NCBI GenBank assembly: GCA_015062525.1
Contig: SUUM01000001.1
Coordinates: forward strand, 132,931 to 196,930
DNA: 64,000 nt
DNA from: Alphaproteobacteria bacterium
Lineage (GTDB): Bacteria; Pseudomonadota; Alphaproteobacteria; Rs-D84
Direction of reading: 5' to 3'
Every line of letters starts with the position of its first letter. The first letter of the stretch is position 1. A model generated the notes under the pieces. It made no database searches, was not told the origin of the DNA, and was given only the letters and a program-made list of their open reading frames with translations. This document shows, one piece after another, positions 5,138-64,000 of this stretch. A program made the position numbers and the translations under genes.

Positions 5138-6436
5138 ATGAAAAAATTCTTTATCCAAACCTTTGGTTGTCAAATGAATGTTTATGATGGCTGGCGCATT
5201 GCTGCGATGCTGGAACACCGCGGTATGGCGCGTACAGACGATGTTTCCGATGCAGACATCATCATTCTGAACACCTGCGCGGTTCGCGCCAAGGCAACGG
5301 ATAAAGTCTTTTCTGCCCTGGGGCGCATACGGCGCGCGAAAAAGCCAACCGCCCTGTTCGGCATTGTTGGTTGTGTCGCACGCGAATCGGGCGCAGACGC
5401 ATTTCGTCGCATCCCCGATTTGAACTTTGTCTTGGGACCGCAAAGCTATCACAAATTACCAGACATCTTGGAAAACCCAGATGCCCGCTTGTTAAACATT
5501 GACCTGGGCGGCTTGGAAAAGTTTGATTCCCTGCCCCAAATGGAAAAATCACCACGCGTTGCGTACATCCCAATCCAAGAAGGTTGCAACCACGTCTGCA
5601 CATATTGTATTGTTCCATACACACGCGGACGCGAAATTTCACGTTCATTCGAATCGGTTATGGCGGAAACTTTGCACGCTGCAAAAACCGGCGCAATTGA
5701 AATTTGTTTTTTGGGACAAAATGTCAACGGCTATAAATACACCGACGAAAACGGCACGATTTATCGCCTGTCTGATTTAATTCGTGAAACCGCAAAAATC
5801 CCAGAAATCATGCGTATACGCTTTACATCCAGTTATCCAACCGAAATGACAGATGACCTGATTGACATGTTCAAGACGGAACCAAAATTACTGCCATTTT
5901 TGAACATGCCAATTCAAAGTGGCGCGCCCACTGTGCTGACCCGCATGAATCGTCCATACAGTTTGGAATTATACACCGACATCATTCGCAAATTAAAAAT
6001 CGCACGTCCCGACATTCAAATTTCATCGGACTTTATCGTTGGTTTCCCCGGCGAATCGGACCAAGATTTTGAACAAACAATGCGTATTGCGGAACAAATA
6101 AAATATATCAATTCATACTCATTCAAATATTCACCGCGCCCACATACCGTGGCGGCATTAATGCCGGACCAGATACCCGAGAATATCAAGGCCGCACGTC
6201 TGGCACGACTGGACACACGCCTGAATGAAATTCAGCGCGACTTTAATGAATCTTGTATTGATAAAACATTATCCTGCCTGCTGGAAGGGTCTGACAAAAC
6301 CGGACGCCACCTGGTATATCGCACACCATTCATGCAACAATGCATTGTGGAATTCCGCGACAACGCGCCAGAACTGGCGGATATAAAAATTACTGCCGCG
6401 AACAAGGCATCCCTGCGCGGCAAGTTTATCGATTAA
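5138..6436 (+). CDS. miaB: tRNA-2-methylthio-N6-dimethylallyladenosine synthase
   Basis: It has the UPF0004 motif FGCQMN, the radical-SAM motif CNHVCTYCIVP and a TRAM-like C-terminus. I chose the start at MKKFF. Confidence 0.9.
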   Translation: MKKFFIQTFGCQMNVYDGWRIAAMLEHRGMARTDDVSDADIIILNTCAVRAKATDKVFSALGRIRRAKKPTALFGIVGCVARESGADAFRRIPDLNFVLGPQSYHKLPDILENPDARLLNIDLGGLEKFDSLPQMEKSPRVAYIPIQEGCNHVCTYCIVPYTRGREISRSFESVMAETLHAAKTGAIEICFLGQNVNGYKYTDENGTIYRLSDLIRETAKIPEIMRIRFTSSYPTEMTDDLIDMFKTEPKLLPFLNMPIQSGAPTVLTRMNRPYSLELYTDIIRKLKIARPDIQISSDFIVGFPGESDQDFEQTMRIAEQIKYINSYSFKYSPRPHTVAALMPDQIPENIKAARLARLDTRLNEIQRDFNESCIDKTLSCLLEGSDKTGRHLVYRTPFMQQCIVEFRDNAPELADIKITAANKASLRGKFID

Positions 6437-36870: not shown

Positions 36871-36947
36871 ACTATCATAAAATTAACACAAAATAAATTA
36901 TTGTCAAATAAAATCAACCCTACCCGGCCCCTTGCTTGGTAAAAAAT

Positions 36948-37043
36948 AAAAGATAATGGTATAGATATGGACAGTGCCGCCCCCGTAGTGTACAGACGCT
37001 ACATAAGGGGACGGCACCGTTCATAGATATGCCATTAGATTTT
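36948..37043 (-). repeat. Long-hairpin repeat family, copy A
   Basis: It has the left flank AAAGATAATGGTATAGATA, a stem pairing GTGCCGCCCC with GGGGACGGCAC, the core GTAGTGTACAGACGCTACATAA and the right flank TAGATATGCCATTAGATTT. Confidence 0.8.
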
Positions 37044-37065
37044 ATTGAAAATAAATTAGAATGTG

Positions 37066-37136
37066 CCAGATGCACGCAGTGGGTGTGGCGTAGTGTACAA
37101 GTCACTACATGAGCCACACCCACCGCGTGCAGATGG
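37066..37136 (-). repeat. Long-hairpin repeat family, copy B
   Basis: It has an 18-bp stem (GCACGCAGTGGGTGTGGC / GCCACACCCACCGCGTGC) with one mismatch, the core GTAGTGTACAAGTCACTACATGA and AGAT/AGAT at the base. Confidence 0.8.
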
Positions 37137-37160
37137 ACCGTTATAATTTATTTATATTTT

Positions 37161-37901
37161 TTAGAACAAGATATTTATCTTGAATCCTACCTGTGCATCA
37201 TCTGATTCAAATTCATAGTCAATATGCCCTACATACTGTGTACGCCCATATTGACGAACCAATTTCATATGCAACCATTCCTGATCATAGTCTTTGCCAG
37301 TTTGCATATCCTTATGCGTCGCCTTACGAATTGTCAACCCCGCACCAATTCGCCAGTCTGGTGCAATACGAAAATATGATTCAGGGGTAAAATCTAATAA
37401 CGCCATACCACGCAAATCATCAAACACCCATGTTGATTTAATTGTCGCAGCCAATGTCATACCCGCCCATTGACGCCCCATACGCAACCCAACATAGTAC
37501 GTAGAATCAGCATAATCCGGCGTACGCACGCGATGACTGCCCCCAAATTTGAATCCAAACAACACATCCGATATTTTACGTGATTTTTTACCATTGGCCA
37601 TCCCCACACGATAAACACCACCCAAATCAATCGCGGCAAAACCATCTTCGGGTCCATTAAAGTCATGCTGATATCGAACATTTGCACCAATCGCCAAACG
37701 ATTATTCATTCCATATGACAACGATTGACCCATGCCCAAAATATGATCCCAATAAGAAATCGAAGACTGTGTCAAAATCTCTTCTATGCTCTGCAAGAAC
37801 AATGGATCCGACGTATCAGTTGAAACTTCATTTGCACGCGCAAATGATGGCGTTGCCATCACCCCCAACAAACCCAAAACCGATAAAAATTTACGCATCA
37901 A
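37161..37901 (-). CDS. Outer-membrane beta-barrel protein, hypothetical
   Basis: It has a signal peptide, amphipathic beta-strands and a C-terminal ...FKINILF. Confidence 0.55.
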   Translation of the reverse strand: MMRKFLSVLGLLGVMATPSFARANEVSTDTSDPLFLQSIEEILTQSSISYWDHILGMGQSLSYGMNNRLAIGANVRYQHDFNGPEDGFAAIDLGGVYRVGMANGKKSRKISDVLFGFKFGGSHRVRTPDYADSTYYVGLRMGRQWAGMTLAATIKSTWVFDDLRGMALLDFTPESYFRIAPDWRIGAGLTIRKATHKDMQTGKDYDQEWLHMKLVRQYGRTQYVGHIDYEFESDDAQVGFKINILF

Positions 37902-37959: not shown

Positions 37960-39234
37960 TTAGAACTGGAACATTACCTGCAAACCAATTTTTGTTTCTG
38001 CATAGTTATCCAATTCAACCGTACCAATCTTGGTCAAAGAATCCAGATAAAACTCTGTACCGTCTGCCGCCTGGGCCTTAATGTTTGGTTCCATCCAGTA
38101 CAAATCTAAATTCTTGCCATCGACACTGTCATAAAACGCCACCTTGGCATATAAATTCAATGCGAACAAATCATTTGGTTGCCACCCAATAGCACCCTTG
38201 ATATTCGCCTGGTTATGCCAATCATAATCACCGAAAACGGCTTCTACATTCAATGTCCAATCTTCGTTCAGCACGCTGAAGACACCTAACCCAGCCTCCA
38301 GATACGTAACATTGCTGTCCCCGACCTGATATGGGATGTACATCATGGCATCACCATCAATACCATTACCATATGTATTGCCATCCAGGTCCAAATACCA
38401 ACCGCGTGCCAAACCATAAATAGTTGATTTTGACACCTTGTACCCACCCTTTAATTCGATCAAGAAGTTATTGGAAATATCTTTCTGGTGCTGGAAGTAT
38501 GCCGACGCAGTTGCAATCCATTCATCTGTATCAACGAAACGCCACTGTGGGCCAAACCCAAACAGATTCAAACCATCGTCATCCATTTTATCATCTGGCC
38601 AATTACCATCCCATTCAAACTTGTATTCATTCATATCATACTGCAACATCCCCAAAATGGCGACGCGATCTGTAATACCATAACTGAAATCTTCTTTGAT
38701 TGAAAAACCGGTTGTATCCCATTTTCCACCCAATCCATTAAATATATTTTGATATTCCGACGCATTTTTATTCCACACGGGCAATGTCTGACTAATTGTA
38801 AAATCATACGAACTGTTATTATAAGACAAATCAGTATGCGACCCGAACATCCCACCCAGTGGCTGATAGAACGGATGTGCCAAGAAATATTTACGACGCA
38901 TTTTATTCACGATTTTTTCAGAACGTGTTGTACGTTGCGTTGTTTTTGTTACGCGCGCGGACGAAGAATTTGCCCCTTCGTACTGTTTATACAGCGCACT
39001 GCGATTTTGTGGTTTTGTATAATACAAATCACCCGCATCCTTGGATTCATATGTCTTGGTCAGCGTACGTGTCTGATATTTTTCATAGTTAACTTTTTCA
39101 CGAGTCCGCGTAGCGGGCGCGCCCGACAAATCGACACTGGACCCTGCGCGTGTACCCCAATTTGTGGCTGCATCCGCACTTACTGCACCCAACGCCACCA
39201 ACAAACCCACAAAAACTGATAAAGATTTTTTCAT
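37960..39234 (-). CDS. Outer-membrane beta-barrel protein (porin-like), hypothetical
   Basis: It has the signal peptide MKKSLSVFVGLLVALGAVSADA and a beta-strand-rich sequence that ends ...QVMFQF. I trimmed the ORF track start, which overlaps ftsK. Confidence 0.6.
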   Translation of the reverse strand: MKKSLSVFVGLLVALGAVSADAATNWGTRAGSSVDLSGAPATRTREKVNYEKYQTRTLTKTYESKDAGDLYYTKPQNRSALYKQYEGANSSSARVTKTTQRTTRSEKIVNKMRRKYFLAHPFYQPLGGMFGSHTDLSYNNSSYDFTISQTLPVWNKNASEYQNIFNGLGGKWDTTGFSIKEDFSYGITDRVAILGMLQYDMNEYKFEWDGNWPDDKMDDDGLNLFGFGPQWRFVDTDEWIATASAYFQHQKDISNNFLIELKGGYKVSKSTIYGLARGWYLDLDGNTYGNGIDGDAMMYIPYQVGDSNVTYLEAGLGVFSVLNEDWTLNVEAVFGDYDWHNQANIKGAIGWQPNDLFALNLYAKVAFYDSVDGKNLDLYWMEPNIKAQAADGTEFYLDSLTKIGTVELDNYAETKIGLQVMFQF

Positions 39235-39313
39235 AATAAACAACTCCTTTTGGACCAAATTATACCATATTTCCTGCACATAAAAAAGAACAAAAAACCA
39301 TACCCTATCACTT

Positions 39314-41605
39314 TTACAGTATATGTCTTTTATTATTCGCATCAGGCGCAGACACAATCCCATCCTGTTCCATGCGTTCCATAAAGCCCGCAGCCTTGTT
39401 ATAGCCAATCTGCAAACGACGCTGAATATATGAAATGGTTGGCTTTTTATCACGAATAACACATTCTTTGGCGCGTTCATACAGGTCGGCTTCTTTATCC
39501 GCCCCGCCACCGCCCGGTATTGCGCCGGGAATGCCGGCCACATCTGCGCCCGCACCTTCGCCGTCCTCGTCCGTTACACCATCAACATATTCCGGCGCAC
39601 CCTGTGAACGCAGAAAATCACCAATTCGCGTTAATTCATTATCATCAATAAACGCACCGTGTATGCGCACCGGCACGCGTCCTGCCTCGCTAAACAGCAT
39701 ATCACCACACGCCAACAATTGTTCCGCACCACCTTCGCCCAGACATGTCACACTGTCGATACGACTGCGCGCCTGGAATGAAACACGCGTTGGGAAATTA
39801 GCCTTGATAACACCGGTAATTGTTGTTGCGTCTGGTCGTTGTGTCGCCATCACCAGGTGAATACCCGCCGCACGCGCCTTTTGCGCAATACGCTGAACAC
39901 AGGCCTCTACATCCTTGCGCGCCAGGCTCATAAGGTCCGCCACCTCGTCAATAACGATAACGATATATGGAATATCAGACAAATCTATTTCCTGGGTTTC
40001 GAACAATAATTCACCGGTTTCTGGGTCTGTACCCACGGCAACTTGCTTGGTCAATTTTTCGCCCGCCGCGCGTTTTTCAGCCGCTATTTCATTATAACTT
40101 TCGATATTGCGTGCGTTCAGAACCTGCAATTGTTTATAACGTTCTTCCATTTCGCGCACCGCCCATTTCAGTGCGTTCACAGCCGCCGCCGGATCCAATT
40201 TTACAATCGGTGTAATCAGGTGTGGAATATCATCCCAGAATCCAAAGTCCACACCCTTGGGGTCGATAATCATCAACTTGCACTTATCGGGTGTAAAGTG
40301 ATAAACAATCGATGTAATGATTGATTGCACGAACACAGACTTACCCGAACCCGTGCGCCCTGCGATTAACATATGCGGCATTTTTGCCAAATCAAAATAC
40401 ATTGGATTTCCGCCAATATTCACCCCCAACGCCAGCGGGATTTTGTATTTAGTATCAACAAAAGTATCCGATTCCATCAAACTGCGATAACGCACGGTCT
40501 GACGGGTCACATTTACCATTTCGACGCCAATATAACTAGTACTTGGGATATGGGCGATACGAATATTTTCGGTCGCCATGGCGCGTGTCATATCCTTGAC
40601 CGTTTTAGTAATATCCGCAATACGCATACCCGTATCAGGTTCAAATTCATACAGTGTTACAATGGGTCCCGGCTTAATTCCCATAACCCGACCAAAGACC
40701 CCATATTCAGCAAAATGCGTTTCCATATTTCGTGCATTTTGCTTCAATTCCGGCGTTACCGCACATTTACTGAACAAAGATTTTTCCAGCAATTTTGGGT
40801 CCGGCAATTGATATTGAGATGTCGCGCGCACACGTTTTGGTGCCACCGCAACGGGCGCGGGCGTTGCAACCACCGTGGCCTTTTTCGGCGCGCGACGTGA
40901 TAAAAACCCACGACGTTGCTTTTTTGGTTGTTCTGTTTCTTCTTCCTGGCTGTCGTCTTCTGCGACATCTTCTGCCTCATCATATTCCATCGCCGCAACT
41001 GGTGTCGTCAGATGGAATGCCGCCGCCACGGCACGTATCGTACGCCATGCAATCTGCAGCGCGCCACGCACATGCGCCCATTTAATGTGTAATAAACTGC
41101 CCCCCATCCAGAAAAAGCCAACCAAACACAAAATCCCCACGACCAGGGCACCACCACCCATAATCGCCCCCAGGTCATTTGCGACAATTGCCCCAAAAAT
41201 TCCGCCAAACGCACGCGCCGGCATAATCAGTCCAAAACCAGCCGCCCCCAAACACACCGCAATAAACCCACGCAAAAAATTATATTCAGGCGACACATCC
41301 CCACGCAACGCAATCGCGCGCATAAAACCCCAACGCGCCACACACAGAAATACAAACAACCCCGGAACCGCCCCGATTGCGTACCGAACAAAACCAACAA
41401 CATGCCCCGCAACGGACTGGTCGCCGAACGTACCCGACGCCCCAAACCCCGACAAATAAGGGTCATAAAACAGCATTGCGAAAACCGCCCACACACCGCC
41501 CACGCACACCAGCGCACCAAACACGCGCGCCACAAAAGCCTTTAATACGCCGGAAATACTGTCCGGCAAAAATTTATTTGAATTCTTTCCTGCCATAACA
41601 GTCAT
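39314..41605 (-). CDS. ftsK: DNA translocase FtsK
   Basis: It has N-terminal TM helices, a linker, a motor domain with the Walker A motif GRTGSGKS and a gamma winged-helix tail. Confidence 0.95.
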   Translation of the reverse strand: MTVMAGKNSNKFLPDSISGVLKAFVARVFGALVCVGGVWAVFAMLFYDPYLSGFGASGTFGDQSVAGHVVGFVRYAIGAVPGLFVFLCVARWGFMRAIALRGDVSPEYNFLRGFIAVCLGAAGFGLIMPARAFGGIFGAIVANDLGAIMGGGALVVGILCLVGFFWMGGSLLHIKWAHVRGALQIAWRTIRAVAAAFHLTTPVAAMEYDEAEDVAEDDSQEEETEQPKKQRRGFLSRRAPKKATVVATPAPVAVAPKRVRATSQYQLPDPKLLEKSLFSKCAVTPELKQNARNMETHFAEYGVFGRVMGIKPGPIVTLYEFEPDTGMRIADITKTVKDMTRAMATENIRIAHIPSTSYIGVEMVNVTRQTVRYRSLMESDTFVDTKYKIPLALGVNIGGNPMYFDLAKMPHMLIAGRTGSGKSVFVQSIITSIVYHFTPDKCKLMIIDPKGVDFGFWDDIPHLITPIVKLDPAAAVNALKWAVREMEERYKQLQVLNARNIESYNEIAAEKRAAGEKLTKQVAVGTDPETGELLFETQEIDLSDIPYIVIVIDEVADLMSLARKDVEACVQRIAQKARAAGIHLVMATQRPDATTITGVIKANFPTRVSFQARSRIDSVTCLGEGGAEQLLACGDMLFSEAGRVPVRIHGAFIDDNELTRIGDFLRSQGAPEYVDGVTDEDGEGAGADVAGIPGAIPGGGGADKEADLYERAKECVIRDKKPTISYIQRRLQIGYNKAAGFMERMEQDGIVSAPDANNKRHIL

Positions 41606-56488: not shown

Positions 56489-58225
56489 TTATCTCTCGAA
56501 CCAGGTATCGATTTCAGTCATCGGGATAAACTTGTACACCGGTCGCCCGTGATTACATTGCCCCGCCCGTTCAGTCCTTTCAATATCGCGCAACAGCGCA
56601 TCCATCTGCATCATATCCAGTTTCTGTCCCGCCCGCACAGAATGGTGGCACGCCCAGTTTGCCAACTTCAAATGCAACCGTTCATTTAACTGTGCTGAAT
56701 GTCCGTGTATACGCACCTCGTCCGCGATTGCATGCAACACATCCGCCCAGTTCATGTCCCAATCGGCGGGCTTTTCAAAAATCGCAATTGCATCCGCCCC
56801 AAATTCCCCGACATGCAATCCAGACGCCTTTAATTCATCTGCAATGGACGAAATCGCCACCACATCCGCATCCCGCATATTCACAACAATAGGTGTCAAC
56901 AGGGGCTGTGTCTTGATTTTATGTGTACGCAGTTTTTCATAGGTTATACGTTCATGGGCGGCATGCTGGTCCACAATAACCATATTGTCATCTTTTTGGG
57001 CAATTATATATTTATTCCCAACCTGTCCCACAACGCGCCCCAACGGCAAATCAATCACAACCGTATTGTCTATGTACGGCTTATTTTCTGAACTCTGCAC
57101 TCTGAACTCTGCACTCTGTTGCATTCCCCGCGGAAATGCGATTTCGTCCCTTACCTGAAAGATTTCCCGCCGAATACCAAAGTCAAATTTTACCGGTTCA
57201 ACATTTGCTCTTTGCTCATTGCTCTTTGCACTTTCCACAAACATTGGTTTTGCCAATGTTTGTGCCAATCTGTCCCGCAGTGTCTTGATAATAAAAGACC
57301 GCACATGATTTGGTTCCAGAAAATGTACCTCGGTCTTAGCGGGCGATACATTAACGTCCACCGCGTTTGTCGGCACCGTCAAATACAGCGCGCACAGCGG
57401 AAATTCACGCGCATGCATAACATCCATATACGCTGCCCTTAACGCACCAACCAAAACCTTGTCCTTGACCGGACGACCATTTACAAATAAATATTGATCA
57501 ACACTTGATGCGCGTCGCAAAGTTGGCTCAGAAATAAAACCGGTCAACCTCATCCCCGCATTACTGGACGACGTTGCATCAACTTCCAGCATTCGTCCCA
57601 CAACATCATCACCCATAACAGACGCAATTCGCGTCATCAAATCTTCATTTTTGTGGAAATGCCACTTGTTATTTAACACAAACCCGACATCCGCACGTGC
57701 CATAGCCAAACGTTTTACCACATCGACCACAGACATCATTTCCGCCCGGTCCCCACGCAAGAACTTTAATCGTGCGGGTGTTTTTGCAAACAAATTCTGC
57801 ACCCGAATCCGCGTTCCACTTTCCCAATTCGAAGGCTTTATCTCTTGGGTATTTGCATCAATCTGCCATCCATTGGTGTCTGCGCCATTACACGTATCAA
57901 TTACCATATCAGATACAGATGCGATTGATGGCAATGCCTCGCCCCGGAAACCCATAAAATTAATATCCAATAAATCATCCGTTGGCAATTTAGACGTCGC
58001 ATGACGCGTAATTGCCCGCGCCAGGTCATCACGCGACATACCCGAACCATTATCAACAATACTAATTAACGTGCGTCCACCATCGACAACATCTATCACA
58101 ATCTGGTCCGCCCCCGCATCCAGCGCATTTTCCACCAGTTCTTTAACCACACTTGCGGGACGTTCCACCACCTCGCCTGCGGCGATTTGATTAATCAGAA
58201 AATCCGGCAAAACGCGAACCGCCAT
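56489..58225 (-). CDS. mutL: DNA mismatch repair protein MutL
   Basis: It has an N-terminal GHKL ATPase (QIAAGEVVERPASVVKELVENALDAG) and a C-terminal dimerisation domain. Confidence 0.95.
   Translation of the reverse strand: MAVRVLPDFLINQIAAGEVVERPASVVKELVENALDAGADQIVIDVVDGGRTLISIVDNGSGMSRDDLARAITRHATSKLPTDDLLDINFMGFRGEALPSIASVSDMVIDTCNGADTNGWQIDANTQEIKPSNWESGTRIRVQNLFAKTPARLKFLRGDRAEMMSVVDVVKRLAMARADVGFVLNNKWHFHKNEDLMTRIASVMGDDVVGRMLEVDATSSSNAGMRLTGFISEPTLRRASSVDQYLFVNGRPVKDKVLVGALRAAYMDVMHAREFPLCALYLTVPTNAVDVNVSPAKTEVHFLEPNHVRSFIIKTLRDRLAQTLAKPMFVESAKSNEQRANVEPVKFDFGIRREIFQVRDEIAFPRGMQQSAEFRVQSSENKPYIDNTVVIDLPLGRVVGQVGNKYIIAQKDDNMVIVDQHAAHERITYEKLRTHKIKTQPLLTPIVVNMRDADVVAISSIADELKASGLHVGEFGADAIAIFEKPADWDMNWADVLHAIADEVRIHGHSAQLNERLHLKLANWACHHSVRAGQKLDMMQMDALLRDIERTERAGQCNHGRPVYKFIPMTEIDTWFER
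57088..57122 (+). repeat. Heptanucleotide array (CTGNACT-type x5) inside the mutL linker
   Basis: The units are CTGAACT CTGCACT CTGAACT CTGCACT CTGTTGC. They are translated on the minus strand as ..QQSAEFRVQSSE.. Confidence 0.7.
57204..57238 (+). repeat. Heptanucleotide array (WTTGCNC x5) inside the mutL linker
   Basis: The units are TTTGCTC TTTGCTC ATTGCTC TTTGCAC TTTCCAC. They are translated on the minus strand as ..VESAKSNEQRANV.. Confidence 0.7.
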
Positions 58226-58234
58226 ATTTACGCC

Positions 58235-58705
58235 CTATTCCTTGAATGACACGGACAAAATTTCGTATTCTTTTTCACCACCGGGCAACCTGACAACACA
58301 CGTATCACCAACACACCGCCCAATCATCGCGCGCCCCACCGGCGAAGTACATGAAATCACCGTACGTCCATCGGATTCAATATCGGACAATATACGGCAT
58401 TGCATTTTATTACCATCTTCGTCTTCGGCAACAACACGCGCGCCAAACACAACACGATTCCCCGTCAGCGAATCCACATCAATCACTGCGGCATTTTCAA
58501 TCACATTTTCGATAAATCTAATACGCGCATCAATCTGGCGTTGCTTTTCTTTGGCTGCACTGTAATCTGCGTTTTCCGACAAATCCCCCAGCGACCGCGC
58601 CCATTGAACAGTCTTTAAAATCTCAGGTCTTTGGTTTTCCTGTAAATCCTTTAATTCTTTAATCAGCGCATCAAACCCAGCGCGTGAAATCGGCTTTTTT
58701 TCCAT
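58235..58705 (-). CDS. greA: Transcription elongation factor GreA
   Basis: It is GreA-like (LSENADYSAAKEKQ...). I chose the ATG at 58705. Confidence 0.92.
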   Translation of the reverse strand: MEKKPISRAGFDALIKELKDLQENQRPEILKTVQWARSLGDLSENADYSAAKEKQRQIDARIRFIENVIENAAVIDVDSLTGNRVVFGARVVAEDEDGNKMQCRILSDIESDGRTVISCTSPVGRAMIGRCVGDTCVVRLPGGEKEYEILSVSFKE

Positions 58706-58797
58706 AACATCTTTCCTATTTTCTATAATTATTGGCAAATTATACGAAATCATTTTAATTTTGCAATTATGAAATTTCGCGTTATACTATACATAAT

Positions 58798-59856
58798 ATG
58801 TTCAGGACTAATATCTTAACCCGCTTTTTATTACGCCGCTTTTTCTCGGGCGTTGGTCTTGTTATGCTGGTCGTATGCGGCATTATATTCGCCGTCACAT
58901 TTGTAGAACGCCTGCCATCGAATCCGACTGCACTTGCGGCATTATATGAATCCTGGGTCCGTTTGCTGGAATACGTACCAATGTTTTTACCCCTGGCGGT
59001 ATTCATGGGTACACTGCTAACATCATACAACCTGACAAAATCTACCGAAAATATTATTATATCCAGTGCGGGCCTGTCCCCGTATCAGTCAACCAAACCA
59101 TTTCTGGTTGGCGCATTTTTAATTGGTGTTTTTGCGACGACTGTTATCAATCCATACTCGGTCAACATTAGTGTTCAAAACATTACCCCCGACAACCTGC
59201 AATTAATTGACGATACAATTTGGTTGCGCGAAGAATCCGAAAACGGATTCATAACAATGAACGCAAAAAACGTACACAAGGCGGGCAACATCCTGATTTT
59301 TGAAAACGCAACTGTATATACCCAAACACCCAACTTCAAATTAATTAATCGCATCCAGGCAAATACAATTACCCTGTCTGACATTGGTCTATCCGCGCAT
59401 AACGCGGTTATCTGGAACGCGGACGGCACAACGATACGTGGCGATTGGAAAAAGCAAACATTAATCACCCCGCAAACGGTTCTGGATCGATACCTACAAC
59501 CAGATCAGATTTCATTCTGGCAATTGCCAGATTTTATCCGGCGCATGGAATCAATTGGTGTACCCGTCCGTGGTCATCGGGTACAACTATGGACATTATT
59601 ATTCCTGCCCCTAACAACAATAGCGATGGCGACATTAGGTGTTGCATTTTCTCAAACAAAACAACGCCGCAATTACAGTTTTGGTATTAAATTCAGTCTG
59701 GGTATCATCACATGTTTTGCGGTATATTTTCTAATAAATATGTTCAATGCATTGGGTGCGACTGGCGCCCTGCCACCGGTATTATCTATTATTGCCCCAC
59801 CACTTATTATAATTGCGGGCGCGGGCATATTTATGAACAGTTTTGATACAATCTAA
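58798..59856 (+). CDS. LPS export ABC permease, LptF/LptG (YjgP/YjgQ) family
   Basis: It has six TM helices with a large periplasmic loop and a family-typical N-terminus. Confidence 0.75.
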   Translation: MFRTNILTRFLLRRFFSGVGLVMLVVCGIIFAVTFVERLPSNPTALAALYESWVRLLEYVPMFLPLAVFMGTLLTSYNLTKSTENIIISSAGLSPYQSTKPFLVGAFLIGVFATTVINPYSVNISVQNITPDNLQLIDDTIWLREESENGFITMNAKNVHKAGNILIFENATVYTQTPNFKLINRIQANTITLSDIGLSAHNAVIWNADGTTIRGDWKKQTLITPQTVLDRYLQPDQISFWQLPDFIRRMESIGVPVRGHRVQLWTLLFLPLTTIAMATLGVAFSQTKQRRNYSFGIKFSLGIITCFAVYFLINMFNALGATGALPPVLSIIAPPLIIIAGAGIFMNSFDTI

Positions 59857-59876
59857 GACATACGGGGTACAAAGAC

Positions 59877-60011
59877 ATGCCATTAAAAAAGAAAAAAAAT
59901 TCCAAATTCCCACGTATTTTAATGTGGATATTGATTGCTATATTGGTCGTATTAATGATTATTTCTTTTGCGCCAACATCGCACATGACAGAAATCGTGG
60001 TGTACCCATAA
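59877..60011 (+). CDS. Small membrane protein candidate (44 aa)
   Basis: I found this ORF by hand translation: MPLKKKKNSKFPRILMWILIAILVVLMIISFAPTSHMTEIVVYP. It fills the lpt-xerD gap almost exactly, and its stop is 1 nt before the xerD ATG. Confidence 0.25.
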   Translation: MPLKKKKNSKFPRILMWILIAILVVLMIISFAPTSHMTEIVVYP

Positions 60012-60012
60012 C

Positions 60013-60864
60013 ATGAATTATATTGAAATATTTTTAGAAGCCCTGTCTGCCGAACGCGGTCGCAGCATAAAAACACTAAGCGGTTATGAATCAGACCTGC
60101 GTCTGGCAAATGACGCCATTGCGGGCGGATTAATTGGCGCGGACGCAAACGCCATACAAAAGTATCTGGCATCTTTGCCGGACAAGCCATCATCAATCGC
60201 GCGCAAGGCATCCGCCCTGCGTGGTTTCTATAAATTTTTAATGATGGAAAAAATCATATCGCACAACCCAACCGCCAACCTTGAATTACCCAAACGAACG
60301 CGCACATTACCAAAATTCTTATCTATTGATGAAATTGAATTATTAATTTCCAGTGCGGGCGACATAAAAAACTCAATACGCCTGCGCGCGATGATTGAAT
60401 TGCTGTACGCATCGGGTCTGCGTGTTTCGGAATTATGTGAATTACCAATGACGGGTGTCCTGGGCGACAAATTACTTATTCATGGCAAGGGCGCCAAAGA
60501 ACGCCTGGTCCCAATGCACGATGCTGCAATACATGCCCTGAATAAATGGCTGGATGCACGTGGCGACAACGAATCCAAATACGTGTTTCCATCGAACGGA
60601 AAAACGGGCCACATCACCCGCGACGGATTTTTCAAGATATTGAAAAAATGCGCTATCTTGGCGGGCATTGACCCAAACCGCGTCAGTCCGCACGTCCTGC
60701 GCCATTCATTTGCATCCCACCTGTTGGCGGGTGGCGCAAACCTGCGCGCAATTCAAACAATGCTGGGACACGAAGACATTTCCACAACCCAGATTTACAC
60801 CCACGTCATGCCACACGAATTAATGGACACAGTCGAGGCACATCATCCCCTGGCCAAGAAATAA
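60013..60864 (+). CDS. xerD: Tyrosine recombinase XerD (XerC/D family)
   Basis: The R-H-R-Y catalytic set is present (ASGLRVSEL, HVLRHSFA, GHEDISTTQIYTHV). It is 283 aa. Confidence 0.8.
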   Translation: MNYIEIFLEALSAERGRSIKTLSGYESDLRLANDAIAGGLIGADANAIQKYLASLPDKPSSIARKASALRGFYKFLMMEKIISHNPTANLELPKRTRTLPKFLSIDEIELLISSAGDIKNSIRLRAMIELLYASGLRVSELCELPMTGVLGDKLLIHGKGAKERLVPMHDAAIHALNKWLDARGDNESKYVFPSNGKTGHITRDGFFKILKKCAILAGIDPNRVSPHVLRHSFASHLLAGGANLRAIQTMLGHEDISTTQIYTHVMPHELMDTVEAHHPLAKK

Positions 60865-60878
60865 AAAAGGTATAAATA

Positions 60879-61382
60879 ATGATAAAAAAATGTGATAAAC
60901 CAGGTTGCACCAAAGCAGGCACATGTCGCGCCCCAAAATCACGAGATTTGCGTGAATACTGGTTTTTTTGCACCGAACATGCCGCCGAATACAACAAAAA
61001 TTGGAACTATTACGCCGACATGACCCCGGACGAGATTGAGGCCGACTGGGAACGCCAGACATTCGGCGAACCATTAAAGGACAAAAACACGGCAAAATCA
61101 GACGCATCCGATTACGCAAAATTTATTAATGATTTTATCATGGGCCGCGGCAAATTCGATAAAATGCCCGCACGCAGTAAATTACCCACCAACGTTGTAT
61201 CTGCATTAAAGGTGTTTGATTTGGGCATATCTGCCACATGGCGCGAAGTTGGGGTAAAATACCGTGCACTTGCGAAAAAGTATCACCCAGATACCGCAAC
61301 CGACAAGAAAAATGCCGCCACCGAATTTGCGCGCATTGGTACCGCATATGAAATTCTAAAAAAACATTTCGGAAAAAAATGA
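60879..61382 (+). CDS. J-domain protein with an N-terminal Cys-rich segment
   Basis: It has a C-terminal J domain with the HPD motif (YHPDTA). The N-terminus CDKPGC...C...FCTEH is typical of small alphaproteobacterial DnaJ-like proteins. Confidence 0.7.
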   Translation: MIKKCDKPGCTKAGTCRAPKSRDLREYWFFCTEHAAEYNKNWNYYADMTPDEIEADWERQTFGEPLKDKNTAKSDASDYAKFINDFIMGRGKFDKMPARSKLPTNVVSALKVFDLGISATWREVGVKYRALAKKYHPDTATDKKNAATEFARIGTAYEILKKHFGKK

Positions 61383-61386
61383 ACAT

Positions 61387-61412
61387 TCCCTGCGTATGCG
61401 GGGATTTTATTT
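61387..61412 (+). terminator. Terminator
   Basis: TCCCTGC-GTAT-GCGGGGA is followed by a T-run. Confidence 0.55.
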
Positions 61413-61484
61413 GGAAAAGATACCTGCTGACCCCACGACTATTTTTTTATAAAATGACAATGAACATAACAATCGGGGGACATA

Positions 61485-62000
61485 ATGCTATTAAAATCAA
61501 AAATTTGTATAACGTCATTAGTTATATATGAAATTATTGCCGTATCAATTTTGCACTTTCAACGCATTTGCGACGCAATATTTACAAGTGCCTTCTGCGA
61601 CAGTTGGTATCGTTATTTTCTGTTTTGCGTGGCGATTCCATTGGTCGCATTATTGATATGGATGTGGATAAGTGAAATCATCCGCGTACACCGCCGGCAC
61701 AAATTCATCCGCCGTGCCAAAAATGCCGCCAGTGGAATACTGTCCAGCATACGTGGACACGTATCTGACAACATATCACACGCAGACATGGAAAAAATAA
61801 TAACCGCGGCCGTATTGATTGGCATCAAGCGCTATGCCGACCGTCATCCAAACCTGCGCAAAAATATAAACAACATCATTGGCATGGCAAATGGCGAAAT
61901 TGACATTGATTTAATGTCCACAGACGATGAAGAACCGGTCAAAAAGCCACGCAAAACGAATAAAAAAAGTGGCACAAAACCCACCAAAAAACGCAAATAA
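61485..62000 (+). CDS. Hypothetical membrane protein with a Lys-rich tail
   Basis: It has two or three hydrophobic helices and the basic C-terminus KKPRKTNKKSGTKPTKKRK. Confidence 0.4.
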   Translation: MLLKSKICITSLVIYEIIAVSILHFQRICDAIFTSAFCDSWYRYFLFCVAIPLVALLIWMWISEIIRVHRRHKFIRRAKNAASGILSSIRGHVSDNISHADMEKIITAAVLIGIKRYADRHPNLRKNINNIIGMANGEIDIDLMSTDDEEPVKKPRKTNKKSGTKPTKKRK

Positions 62001-62034
62001 AGATTCCTGTTCTCACACCCCCAGCAACGGGAAA

Positions 62035-62135
62035 AAATTAAAGATAATTGTATAGATAAACGGGTTGGAAATGGCGTAGTGTACACAAACGTACATGAGC
62101 CATTGCCAACCCGCTTTAGATATGCCACTAGATTT
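62035..62135 (-). repeat. Long-hairpin repeat family, copy C
   Basis: It has the left flank AAAGATAATTGTATAGATA, the stem ACGGGTTGGAAATGGC / GCCATTGCCAACCCGC, the core GTAGTGTACACAAACGTACATGA and the right flank TAGATATGCCACTAGATTT. Confidence 0.8.
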
Positions 62136-62139
62136 AATT

Positions 62140-62313
62140 TTAATCAACTTTCAGATGACCAGAACGCCCACTCTTTAACCATTCCAAAACCGCGATTCTG
62201 GACTCTACACCAATTTTATCCTGCTCAGATTCTGCATCTACTTTTTTCAATTCTTCAATAACCGCATCAATTTTAGCAAGAACATTTTCATTCAAAACTT
62301 TACTTTTTGTCAT
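62140..62313 (-). CDS. Small hypothetical protein (57 aa) flanked by hairpin-family copies
   Basis: The ATG at 62313 has AAGGAG 7 nt upstream. The predicted helical sequence is MTKSKVLNENVLAKIDAVIEELKKVDAESEQDKIGVESRIAVLEWLK... Confidence 0.5.
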   Translation of the reverse strand: MTKSKVLNENVLAKIDAVIEELKKVDAESEQDKIGVESRIAVLEWLKSGRSGHLKVD

Positions 62314-62332
62314 TTCAAACTCCTTTATTAAA

Positions 62333-62416
62333 ATTAAAGATAATGGTATAGCCGAACGCGAACCCGCAACCATAGTGTACAGACGCTACATGAGGGGACG
62401 GCACCGTGCGTAGATG
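62333..62416 (-). repeat. Long-hairpin repeat family, copy D (chimeric, non-pairing left arm)
   Basis: It has the left flank AAAGATAATGGTATAG. Its core and right arm, TAGTGTACAGACGCTACATGAGGGGACGGCACCGT, are almost identical to copy A. Its left arm, CCGAACGCGAACCCGCAACC, is not complementary. Confidence 0.7.
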
Positions 62417-62421
62417 AATTA

Positions 62422-63321
62422 TTATAATTTATTTAAGTACGCGATTGCGTCCATTCCGGCGCTGCACCCCGTCCCCACAGCCGTCGCAATTTGCATCTTT
62501 AATTCGCTGTGCACATCGCCTGCGACATACATACCGGCCGGCAACGCGTCCGGTGCAATACGCCCCAATGCATCACGTTTAACATCCTCGGTCAGATAAT
62601 CTGTATTCGCCTCGTGCCCAATGGCAACAAACAAACCATCGGCAACGATTTGGTCGCCATCGGTTGTTGTGATAATCAACTCGCCATCTTGTGAATCCGG
62701 TTTTGCCGCAATCTTTGCCAAATCTGTATTAAACAGACATTCAATATTATCGCGTGCCTGAACCCGTTCACGCAAAACAGCCTCGGCGCGTGTGAATGCA
62801 GATTTACGATAAACAATTTTAACATTTTTCGCCAAATCAGCCAAATACAACGCATCGTTCAGCGCACTGTTTCCGCCACCCATAACGACGACGTTTTTCC
62901 CACTATAAAAGAACCCATCACACGTCGCACAATACGAAACACCGCGCCCCATAAATTCACGCGCACCTTCGATTTCCAATTTGCGCGGACTGGCACCCGT
63001 GGCGATAATCACAGTTTTACCAACAAATTCTTCATCGTTATCACACAGAACACGATACCCATTTTCCGCATCCCCCGTGATATTTTTTGCACTAATAAAT
63101 TTTACTGTGGCACCAAATGTTTCACATTGTTTTTGCATAAACTGTGCCAATTCAAAACCGGAACCGGCCCACCCCGGATAGTTTTCCAGTGTTGCAATAC
63201 CCGCCATCTGACCACCCAACCGGTCGCCACCGATAACAATCGTCTTTTTATTTGCACGCGCTGTGTACAACGCCGCGGTCAAACCGGCCGGTCCTGAACC
63301 CAATATAATTACATCATACAT
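62422..63321 (-). CDS. trxB: Thioredoxin-disulfide reductase
   Basis: It has the FAD motif GSGPAG and the redox centre CATCDG. Confidence 0.93.
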   Translation of the reverse strand: MYDVIILGSGPAGLTAALYTARANKKTIVIGGDRLGGQMAGIATLENYPGWAGSGFELAQFMQKQCETFGATVKFISAKNITGDAENGYRVLCDNDEEFVGKTVIIATGASPRKLEIEGAREFMGRGVSYCATCDGFFYSGKNVVVMGGGNSALNDALYLADLAKNVKIVYRKSAFTRAEAVLRERVQARDNIECLFNTDLAKIAAKPDSQDGELIITTTDGDQIVADGLFVAIGHEANTDYLTEDVKRDALGRIAPDALPAGMYVAGDVHSELKMQIATAVGTGCSAGMDAIAYLNKL

Positions 63322-63390
63322 GATAACCTTCCTTTATAACTTTACGCGACACAGATTACAAAACAAATGCCACCAACGCAAACGAATTTA

Positions 63391-63419
63391 TTGCAACGCG
63401 ACTTAAAAAGATTTATAAT
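63391..63419 (+). promoter_or_regulatory. Sigma70-like promoter upstream of serS
   Basis: It reads TTGCAA-N17-TATAAT. Confidence 0.55.
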
Positions 63420-63428
63420 CAGAACAAT

Positions 63429-63482
63429 ATGAAAATCGTTTGTGTATTTTTCTCGTCCATCTCATCCCCGTTGGGGGAATAG
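63429..63482 (+). promoter_or_regulatory. Candidate Ser-rich leader mini-ORF in the serS 5' region
   Basis: It encodes MKIVCVFFSSISSPLGE, with 4 Ser among 17 codons. It starts about 10 nt after the -10 element and has no clear RBS. Confidence 0.2.
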
Positions 63483-63571
63483 TTTATCGTACACTTTTTT
63501 GATTTTATAATTGCGAAACATTTCGCACCATAATAACATATATTCCAAATAAAAACCTAAGGAACAAAAAC

Positions 63572-64000
63572 ATGTTGGATATAAAATTTATTCGTGAAAA
63601 CCCAGACATTGTAAAAAACGCCTGCGCGACCAAGGGCATGCCCGACCATACCGATGAAATTTTGGCGTTGGACGTCCGTGTTCGCGAACTTAAAACAATT
63701 ACCCAGTCTAAAACGGCTGAAAAGAATAAAATCACACGCGAAATTCCAACCGCAACGGACCGCGCACCATTAATTGCACGCAGCAAAGCAATCGCAGACG
63801 AAATCGCGGCCGATATGGCGGAATTGGCGGACAAAGAATCCCAGTTAAATGATTTATTACACCGCGTTCCACAAATTCCATCACCCGATACCCCAATTGG
63901 TCGCGATGATACAGAAAATGTGGAAATCAAACGCATTGGCACACCACGCGAATTTGATTTCACGCCACGCGCCCAATGGGATTTATTGGAAATGAACGGT
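63572..64000 (+). CDS. serS: Serine--tRNA ligase, N-terminal part (continues beyond the window)
   Basis: Hand translation gives MLDIKFIRENPDIVKNA..., followed by the N-terminal coiled coil typical of SerS. AAGGAA lies upstream. Confidence 0.85.
   Translation, partial: MLDIKFIRENPDIVKNACATKGMPDHTDEILALDVRVRELKTITQSKTAEKNKITREIPTATDRAPLIARSKAIADEIAADMAELADKESQLNDLLHRVPQIPSPDTPIGRDDTENVEIKRIGTPREFDFTPRAQWDLLEMNG

Follow-up and report, generated by a model that had tools for sequence, protein, structure and literature searches.

Several described classes of bacterial repeats and sites bear a partial likeness to the repeats that are the subject of this study. The REP, BIME and REPIN elements are interspersed, imperfect intergenic palindromes that occur as singles, tandem dimers and clusters, with mixed dimers and subfamilies; they persist vertically within a lineage, and compensatory changes keep their stems paired. 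A REP measures 20-40 nt and carries a GTAG or CGTC tag at its foot, and its terminus can supply the stop codon of a neighbouring ORF (PMC3733652). A REP that lies no more than 15 nt from a stop codon influences how the gene upstream is translated, and the evidence for ribosome stalling has been summarised (PMC12306157). What a REPIN conserves is its two inverted REPs, the loop being variable. The attC site of integrons is an imperfect palindrome of 57-141 bp, variable in sequence but conserved in structure, which lies directly 3' of an ORF, sometimes over its stop codon, and whose functional fold is antisense to that ORF. The Xer site dif, present in one copy per replicon, has inverted arms of ~11 bp around a centre of 6-8 bp. 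MITEs (Correia/NEMIS, ERIC, RUP and the Rickettsia palindromic elements) are about 100-150 bp long, carry terminal inverted repeats, form one long hairpin near or overlapping gene ends, and are alike over their full length from copy to copy. Bidirectional intrinsic terminators are made of an A-run, a GC-rich hairpin and a T-run (canonically 0-2 nt from the stem), just after a stop codon and often between convergent genes.

The DNA analysed here (the window, a stretch of 64,000 nucleotides) holds four copies of a hairpin repeat, A to D, and a 57-codon ORF lies between C and D next to trxB. The original prediction regarded C, the ORF and D as a cassette-like arrangement, D as a chimera with an A-type copy whose breakpoint is at the conserved core, and the core as similar in architecture to a tyrosine-recombinase site. 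The analysis described below leads us to consider it likely that C and D belong to a lineage-wide family of ~105-bp palindromic units that sit on gene stops, and that D recombined by homology and not through a site-specific system.

Repeat units of the window and their family

An nhmmer profile built from 106 family members and run on the whole window found exactly four units, A, B, C and D, all on the + strand (E-values 3e-26 to 4e-18), so the four predicted copies are real. In the window the left-flank motif had 3 matches against 0.02 expected, and the core motif 2 exact matches against 0.2 expected. The units and the features next to them are as follows; the flank types are described further below.

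36943-37046, + strand: unit A, intact, type-1 flank; distal member of the tandem pair A-B (nhmmer profile and folding)
37048-37153, + strand: unit B, intact, type-2-like flank; 3' element of the outer-membrane-protein gene at 37161-37901 (- strand)
61485-62000, + strand: orf171, convergent on C; variably present across lineages, marking the variable trxB-dnaJ junction
62034-62140, + strand: unit C, intact palindrome, type-1 flank, arms AAACGGGTTGGAAATGGC / GCCATTGCCAACCCGCTTT; 3' element of the small ORF
62140-62313, - strand: 57-codon ORF, with an AAGGAG ribosome-binding site 8 nt before the ATG and its stop codon at 62140-62142
62330-62434, + strand: unit D, non-folding chimera; 3' element of trxB
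62373-62391, + strand: core of D, TAGTGTACA-GACGC-TACAT; the left breakpoint of the patch is within or at the end of TAGTGTACA
62382-62446, + strand: recombination patch of 65 bp (alignment with conspecific contigs)
62422-63321, - strand: trxB (thioredoxin reductase), with its final codons and stop (62422-62424) encoded by the right flank of D

Folding of A, B and C gave -36 to -44 kcal/mol (z -6.6 to -7.8), and C, which had been described as a complete hairpin, proved to be one (z -7.8); D gave -16.9 kcal/mol with a z of about 0 (-0.5). Units A and B sit between the start of fabD and the stop of the outer-membrane-protein gene, both genes being on the - strand; no gene on record has exactly the outer-membrane-protein product, for which a different start-codon call is a possible reason. 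The arm class of C was also present in 17 loci of other genomes among the loci listed. The right flank of C is followed directly by the stop of the small ORF, 22 nt past the right AGAT. The trxB stop lies inside the flank of D, at offset 10, and every other trxB gene that has a type-2 flank ends likewise; the part of D's flank within trxB codes for ...LNKL and the stop codon. A search of the whole window against Rfam at the gathering threshold returned two tRNAs only, and a search of the A-B region at E up to 10 returned only weak matches resembling miRNA precursors, of a kind typical of any long hairpin.

A scan of 185,579 species genomes with the pattern AGAT-N15-24-TAGTGTACA-N5-6-TACATRAG found the family in more than 117 loci at least, and among the matches listed all but one came from Candidatus Enterousia or from gut alphaproteobacterial MAGs (ruminants, horses, humans). 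Viral contigs held no match to the pattern. From the listed loci and the window we gathered ~190 units, of which 119 were intact, ~48 truncated and ~5 true chimeras. The unit is ~105 bp long and consists, in this order, of a left flank (~23 nt, two main types), AGAT, a variable arm of ~18 nt, the core, the complementary arm, AGAT and a right flank. The core, CG-TAGTGTACA-N5-6-TACAT-RAG, is near-invariant over 9 + 5 nt around a spacer of 5-6 nt that varies among copies, and it offers only a mini-stem of 5-6 bp. The left-flank consensus is AAATWAAWKAKAATGRTWTAGAT, and that of the right flank is ATGCCATTAGATTTWATTT for type 1 and GAATTATTATAATTTATTT for type 2, the type-2 motif being also written AGATGAATTATTATAATTTATTT. 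The sequence TTATAATTTATTTA, which had been noticed to follow both B and D, is indeed present at both; it is not a private link between them but the type-2 right-flank consensus, found in roughly half of the units.

The left and right flanks, of 23 nt, form an imperfect inverted repeat that pairs at about 18 of 23 positions besides G-U pairs, and the entire unit is therefore one hairpin, about 105 nt long. When 106 distinct intact units were aligned, the 29 pairs of the consensus were 86% Watson-Crick and a further 10% G-U, as against 27-35% (Watson-Crick only) with shifted partners as controls; at least three pair types occurred at 19 of the 29 pairs, and the apical GUGUA/UACAU stem was essentially invariant. 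In the divergent lineages of L024, L029, L051 and L082 the flanks are quite different and pairing is preserved. The arms fell into 35 clusters with 126 distinct sequences among the loci listed, and their mismatches showed no strand bias (61 G-U versus 59 A-C). We rejected the idea that the arms are guides to genomic targets, as exact 13-mer matches of the 126 arms outside units were confined to unannotated or degenerate units and low-complexity chance matches. The ends of the units fall in A or T runs. The family is described neither in Rfam nor in the listed titles and abstracts of the literature mentioning Enterousia; it appears to be new, and to be a more interesting result than the locus itself.

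When a unit is oriented so that its core reads TAGTGTACA, the gene on its right was convergent in 101 of 106 arrays. The right AGAT and the stop of this gene were 10-31 nt apart in every one of the 101 arrays measured, which puts the stop within the right flank or at its far end; 97 of these stops were TAA. On the gene strand the type-2 flank reads TAAATAAATTATAA, with TAA in each of the three frames. The gene on the opposite side was at a loose distance, and units were situated between convergent genes in 53 of the 90 arrays for which both neighbours were called. Tandem arrays of several units like A-B were common (51, with a spacing of about 87-110 bp and nothing between the units); within them the gene-proximal unit was nearly always intact, and distal ones often ended 5-12 nt after the core. 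An arrangement such as C-ORF-D, with a gene between two units, was seen only once in the sample. Because there is one unit per gene on its stop, C-ORF-D is two consecutive genes each with its own 3' unit, C belonging to the small ORF and D to trxB, and not one cassette bracketed by C and D as had been proposed.

Alignment of 112 regions upstream of units revealed only an A-rich stretch and a loose C-rich or CCCC-N6-8-GGGG feature. A promoter upstream of the units was considered and rejected, since these regions contain no conserved -35 or -10 element and a consensus scan found no common promoter. In several loci an ordinary terminator stands directly upstream of units. Consensus scans for intrinsic terminators on both strands called no unit.

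Of 115 units, 112 folded more stably on the strand that is antisense to the neighbouring gene, with a mean difference of -11 kcal/mol. This asymmetry stems from the flanks and the core, and the conserved G-U pairs and the tandem G·A pairs at the AGAT motifs are formed on the antisense strand only. The polarity and the antisense-favoured fold, which ordinary recombination does not explain, hint at a dedicated single-strand mechanism, and the fold leaves room for spread as single-strand DNA or for the blocking of incoming antisense transcription. We propose that the unit may act as a folded single strand at gene 3' ends, be it as a terminator, as a protector of RNA ends or as a REP-like element.

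Replacement of the right half of unit D

Contigs encoding exactly the same 57-aa protein were retrieved and compared with the window. L128 showed no difference from the window across 4.4 kb, and its type accounted for about 19 of the 24 contigs read. Three further loci, L129-L131, come from conspecifics that are 98-99% identical, and they differ from the window in just two blocks. The first is a 77-bp indel at about 62022, just upstream of C; here L129-L131 carry an ordinary terminator-like hairpin for orf171, which the window is without. The second, the only difference in and next to D, is the 65-bp patch at 62382-62446. Through the left flank of D, its left arm and ...CAACCATAGTGTACA the window is the same as L129-L131; it diverges from the base after TAGTGTACA, and identity resumes from GCGTCCATTCC, inside trxB.

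In the window, the patch contains the spacer of the core (GACGC), a right arm of the A class, a flank of type 2 and the final 8 codons of trxB, and it alters the TrxB C-terminus from AILYLNKN* to AIAYLNKL*. At the same site L129-L131 have a right arm that is cognate to the left one but partly decayed, a flank of type 1 and the trxB tail TTTTTGTTCAGGTACAGTATGG. This arm, flank and tail are those of the nearest species, represented by L075 and L028 (TrxB 94% identical), and the form in L129-L131 is therefore ancestral. D is a chimera that arose by replacement of a 65-bp stretch reaching from the core to the last trxB codons, and the conspecifics keep the unreplaced form; its left flank and left arm are vertically inherited, and its right arm and right flank were replaced. 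The chimerism of D and its core breakpoint, both foreseen in the original prediction, are thereby confirmed and dated within a species.

The core and right arm of D, TAGTGTACAGACGCTACATGAGGGGACGGCACCGT, agree with A (36986-37020) at 34 of 35 bases, and the left arm is unable to pair with the present right arm, as had been noted. The left arm and left foot are degenerate, the AGAT having been lost to TATAGCCGAAC. Folding of the unit at the same site gave -38.5 kcal/mol (z -6.5) for the intact form in L028 and -20 to -28 kcal/mol (z -2 to -3.9) for L129 and L130. The decay of D had begun before the exchange, given that the ancestral form in L129-L131 was already partly decayed; it may reflect relaxed constraint on a unit that now stands between trxB and a co-oriented gene close behind it, and that would belong to a transcription unit of trxB and the small gene.

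In its flank and trxB tail the patch is closest to the ends of trxB in L021 (42 of 44 bases) and in L091, and in its arm to A and to the unit at trxB in L069. No sampled locus had all 65 bp of it; an intact donor would have the arms (A/C)CGCACGGTGCCGTCCCC / GGGGACGGCACCGTGCG together with a type-2 flank. Two metagenome scans for the donor returned nothing, the window's own sequence likewise not being returned. With no single donor for the whole patch, one has to assume either a history in two steps or a donor outside the sample, and the most likely source would be the trxB 3' end of another Enterousia lineage.

Because the patch ends in the core on one side and in conserved trxB coding sequence on the other, homologous recombination or gene conversion is indicated and not site-specific exchange. 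In the explanation that we favour, each unit or short tandem array is placed directly on a gene stop codon in one fixed polarity, the order at this locus being trxB with unit D and then the 57-codon gene with unit C. The right half of D would have been replaced through one crossover on the 9-11 bp of near-invariant core and another on the trxB coding sequence.

Elsewhere the family shows exchanges of a similar kind. At the orthologous loci L114 and L004 the flanking genes share about 98% identity; in L114 a truncated unit precedes an intact one, and L004 has a single chimera, with its junction in CGTAGTGTACA, in which the left arm of the first unit is joined to the spacer and right arm of the second; this equals a deletion between the two adjacent cores of L114. 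Recombination between the conserved parts of directly repeated units would have produced the L004 chimera. The L118 species has contigs that carry a 150-aa gene and contigs that lack it; a rearrangement with the unit core as its boundary separates the two, and in L118 itself the core is inverted within a perfect hairpin. The trxB 3' end bears a unit in all 15 sampled lineages; many of the arms of these units are related (a class like ACGCACAAACCCG) and some are from unrelated classes, which shows both vertical descent with compensating changes and outright replacement. The shuffling of arms that was expected from exchange at the core is found, as chimeras and as exchanges between neighbours (L114 versus L004); the true chimeras number ~5 among roughly 140 units with both feet. 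One point counts against the explanation that we favour: the two resolvable breakpoints, those of the window versus L130 and of L114 versus L004, fall in the same 9-11 core bases, where a site-specific cut would look alike.

The 57-codon gene and alternative explanations

The small ORF at 62140-62313 and its AAGGAG ribosome-binding site were as predicted, and the ORF is a real, conserved gene. Its homologues form eight clusters, each of exactly 57 aa and 67-98% identical, with the invariant C-terminal sequence EWLKSGRxGHLKV. AlphaFold predicts, with confidence, a two-helix hairpin (pLDDT 87), so the product is probably a conserved two-helix protein; the fold had no match in the PDB, and the protein had no informative match in Pfam, PADLOC or the PDB sequences. 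In relatives the gene is the second of a pair, the first encoding an uncharacterised protein of 140-166 aa; a partner of 140-150 aa had no match in Pfam, PADLOC or the PDB sequences or folds. The pair is downstream of trxB in L118-L123, where it ends in an ordinary terminator and not in a family unit, and between asmA and aspS in L124-L127, which are without units. The partner gene is absent from the window locus.

The original prediction had proposed a comparison of relatives for presence or absence of the small ORF, and the gene indeed varies. It is found downstream of trxB in the species of the window and also in the outgroup L118 (TrxB 85% identical), and it is missing in L075 and L028, of which the former retains a C-type unit and the latter a D-type unit. 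The simplest reading is that the gene was present ancestrally and was lost twice independently by recombination between directly repeated units. The same unit-unit recombination as in L004 would leave a different flanking unit in each case. C-ORF-D would then be cassette-like only in a limited sense, through homology and not through a dedicated site.

We considered, as an alternative, that the units are non-autonomous mobile ssDNA elements, in which an HUH enzyme of the RAYT or IS200/IS605-like kind moves the AGAT-bounded arm-core-arm module and the chimeras are aberrant strand transfers. Several features of the family fit such movement: every one of the 106 intact units has the invariant AGAT at its two feet, on one and the same strand; several arm clusters are shared by both flank types, while the left and right flank types stay matched (43 + 58 matched versus 10 mixed); orthologous sites hold different arm classes in different species; and the fold is strand-asymmetric. 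L033 has an empty scaffold of the form flank-AGAT-flank, and REPs too can supply stop codons to neighbouring ORFs (PMC3733652). However, that scaffold is the only one among the sampled loci. No ORF carries an HUH...Y motif in the 0.94 Mb of DNA around the units, and the GTAG tag is not at the hairpin foot. Moreover, the patch in D reaches past the unit into trxB, unlike the transposition of a module, and A and B are identical in all 21 conspecific contigs, which gives no sign of current mobility. We consider this explanation unlikely.

Just as unlikely is the broader idea, drawn by analogy, that the units may be substrates of an attC- or REPIN-like recombination or transposition specific for ssDNA, which would act on units folded on the strand antisense to the gene they follow, recognise the apical core and the AGAT feet and exchange modules and small genes at the core. 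If this idea were true, the gene 3' ends of Candidatus Enterousia would be programmable hot spots of gene gain and loss.

It is very improbable that the units are tyrosine-recombinase sites of the Xer or integron kind, with the small ORF as a mobile cassette and D formed by strand exchange at the core. Like attC, the unit is imperfectly palindromic, varies in sequence but keeps its structure, stands directly 3' of an ORF in contact with the stop codon (101 of 101 arrays), and folds more stably on the strand antisense to the ORF; one breakpoint of D is in the core, the small ORF is present or absent among relatives, and xerD is 1.3 kb from C. But the other end of the patch is in the trxB coding sequence and not in another core or a second site, and the insertion of a circle into a resident core would not give both the cognate hairpin C and the inherited left arm in D. 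The same small gene is unflanked by units in other genomes. The flank consensuses, AAATWAAWKAKAATGRTWTAGAT and AGAT(ATGCCATTAGATTTWATTT or GAATTATTATAATTTATTT), are without the R''/R' boxes RYYYAAC ... GTTRRRY, and the units follow trxB, outer-membrane-protein genes and other genes at scattered loci, housekeeping genes dispersed over the chromosome among them, with no intI, attI or promoterless cassette array. The truncation points of array units also vary by 5-12 nt. The resemblance of the core to a tyrosine-recombinase site does not hold up, as it has 9 + 5 bases around a variable 5-6 spacer and many copies per genome; with four units in 64 kb the family also differs from dif, to which the original prediction saw no sequence similarity in the core. 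The link to Xer, put forward as speculation, found no support: xerD, with XerD-type domains, is the only integrase-fold gene in the 6 kb searched (58000-64000), and it lies in a conserved housekeeping synteny, lptG-xerD-dnaJ, in all relatives.

Least probable is that D is an old copy with arms decayed by point mutation and with a likeness to A through coincidence or shared ancestry; its degenerate left arm and foot and the partly decayed ancestral form agree with this, but the single sharp 65-bp block with identity on both sides, the new right arm from another class and the joint switch of flank type and trxB codons mark D as a genuine recombinant, so that on the aligned sequences decay is refuted for the right half and does apply to the left half.

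Comparison of the family with described repeats

The locus itself is explained by ordinary recombination between repeats, as we prefer to read it, and the repeat family is not ordinary. It is a compact natural system for the question of how palindromic repeats persist at gene ends in reduced genomes, and it bears on the way in which their conserved parts serve as portable homology, through which 3' ends and small accessory genes are reshuffled among strains and species. For annotation it matters that many genes of the lineage receive their final codons and their stop from the repeat.

The units share with bidirectional intrinsic terminators the succession of A-run, GC-rich hairpin and T-run and the position just after a stop, often between convergent genes. 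Unlike those of a terminator, the T-run is about 20 nt from the GC-rich stem and the apical loop sequence is conserved; ordinary terminators coexist with the family, for example next to the L021 unit and after the L118 small gene. The likeness to MITEs lies in the length, in the single long hairpin near or overlapping gene ends and in the terminal inverted repeats, which are present here as flanks that change in compensation in L024, L029, L051 and L082. The difference lies in the interior arms, which differ wholly between copies yet stay complementary, and neither a target-site duplication nor a parent IS was identified for the units in the sampled loci, where no IS was seen; the sole unit-free orthologous site (for window 39231-39316) is not a clean empty site.

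The closest likeness is to REP/BIME/REPIN elements. The units are likewise extragenic palindromes in many copies (4 in 64 kb, and at least the more than 117 loci in relatives), arranged as singles, tandem pairs and clusters with mixed dimers and subfamilies, kept paired by compensatory changes and vertically persistent in their lineage; they too supply stop codons and are within ribosome reach of them. They are ~105 nt long with AGAT feet, and GTAG occurs only inside the apical core, never at the foot. In contrast to a REPIN, the apical core and the AGAT feet are near-invariant and the stems variable; the orientation to the adjacent gene is nearly absolute, and there is no RAYT-like ORF in the 0.94 Mb of flanks. 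The family thus resembles REP/REPIN elements but lacks the defining features of a REP, and it departs likewise from attC, dif, the typical MITE and the canonical terminator. What it unites are features usually found apart: a near-invariant apical loop, hypervariable complementary stems, invariant AGAT feet, near-absolute polarity with stop-codon contact, and a fold that is stabler on the antisense strand.

Core inversion and unit rearrangement

We compared the unit that follows trxB in two contigs from one species:
L118 2351-2420, a perfect hairpin in which the core is flipped with respect to the flanks
L121 2361-2440, a chimera with the core in the usual orientation
The chimera was also found in L120, and in both L120 and L121 a 150-aa gene has been deleted, leaving its last ~35 nt; the core of the unit is the boundary of the rearrangement that separates these two contigs from L118. 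Two further units carry a core inverted relative to the flanks:
L014 about 5150-5260
L094 at about 7270, minus strand
Such core flips are rare, amounting to about 3 in 190 units. A single locus in the 0.94 Mb of unit-flanking DNA sampled has the flanks without the rest of the unit:
L033 2773-2815, an "empty scaffold" in which left and right flanks are joined via a single AGAT, with arms and core absent (AAATAAATTAGAATGATACAGATGCAATTAGATTTTATT)

Sequence bordering the units

Across all loci, most units are preceded by a stretch rich in C and by a short CCCC-N6-8-GGGG motif, e.g. CCCCTTGCAACGGGG, which are located upstream of units and also between units in arrays. The motif additionally forms the junction that follows truncated units in arrays. 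Examples in the window are:
36918-36940
62010-62030
The region between the stop codon of orf171 (61485-62000, plus strand) and unit C differs among conspecifics. Those represented by L129-L131 have an extra 77 bp at window position about 62014-62037, and this stretch forms an ordinary terminator-like hairpin after orf171 (AAAATCCTGC...GCGGGATTTTTATT) that is missing from both the window and the conspecific L128.

A stop codon lacking units

In the window, the following gene end carries no family unit:
39231-39316, minus strand, end of a gene with the C-terminus ...NNKRHIL and TAA at 39314-39316
Orthologues of this gene have one to four units exactly at the stop codon in eight other lineages (L004, L010, L020, L064, L080, L083, L102 and L114), and a C-rich stretch like that found upstream of units is still there in the window. 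The unit array at this position was probably lost secondarily.

A mechanically called 531-aa ORF (37960-39555) covers the same region. A second outer-membrane-protein-like gene probably begins around 39230 (MKKSLSVF...), and the ORF seems to extend beyond this start and to overlap the upstream gene's end at 39314 in a different frame; it should not be taken as a single gene.

The partner of the 57-aa gene

In relatives, the 57-aa gene always has ahead of it the gene for an uncharacterised protein of 140-166 aa with the conserved acidic core DRGxIYVPxDAETVxYTDxDGQxYEV, as at:
L118 2528-2980
L124 2560-2982
The window lacks this partner gene. Because the two genes together were found in two different chromosomal neighbourhoods, the results suggest that they constitute a mobile two-gene module.
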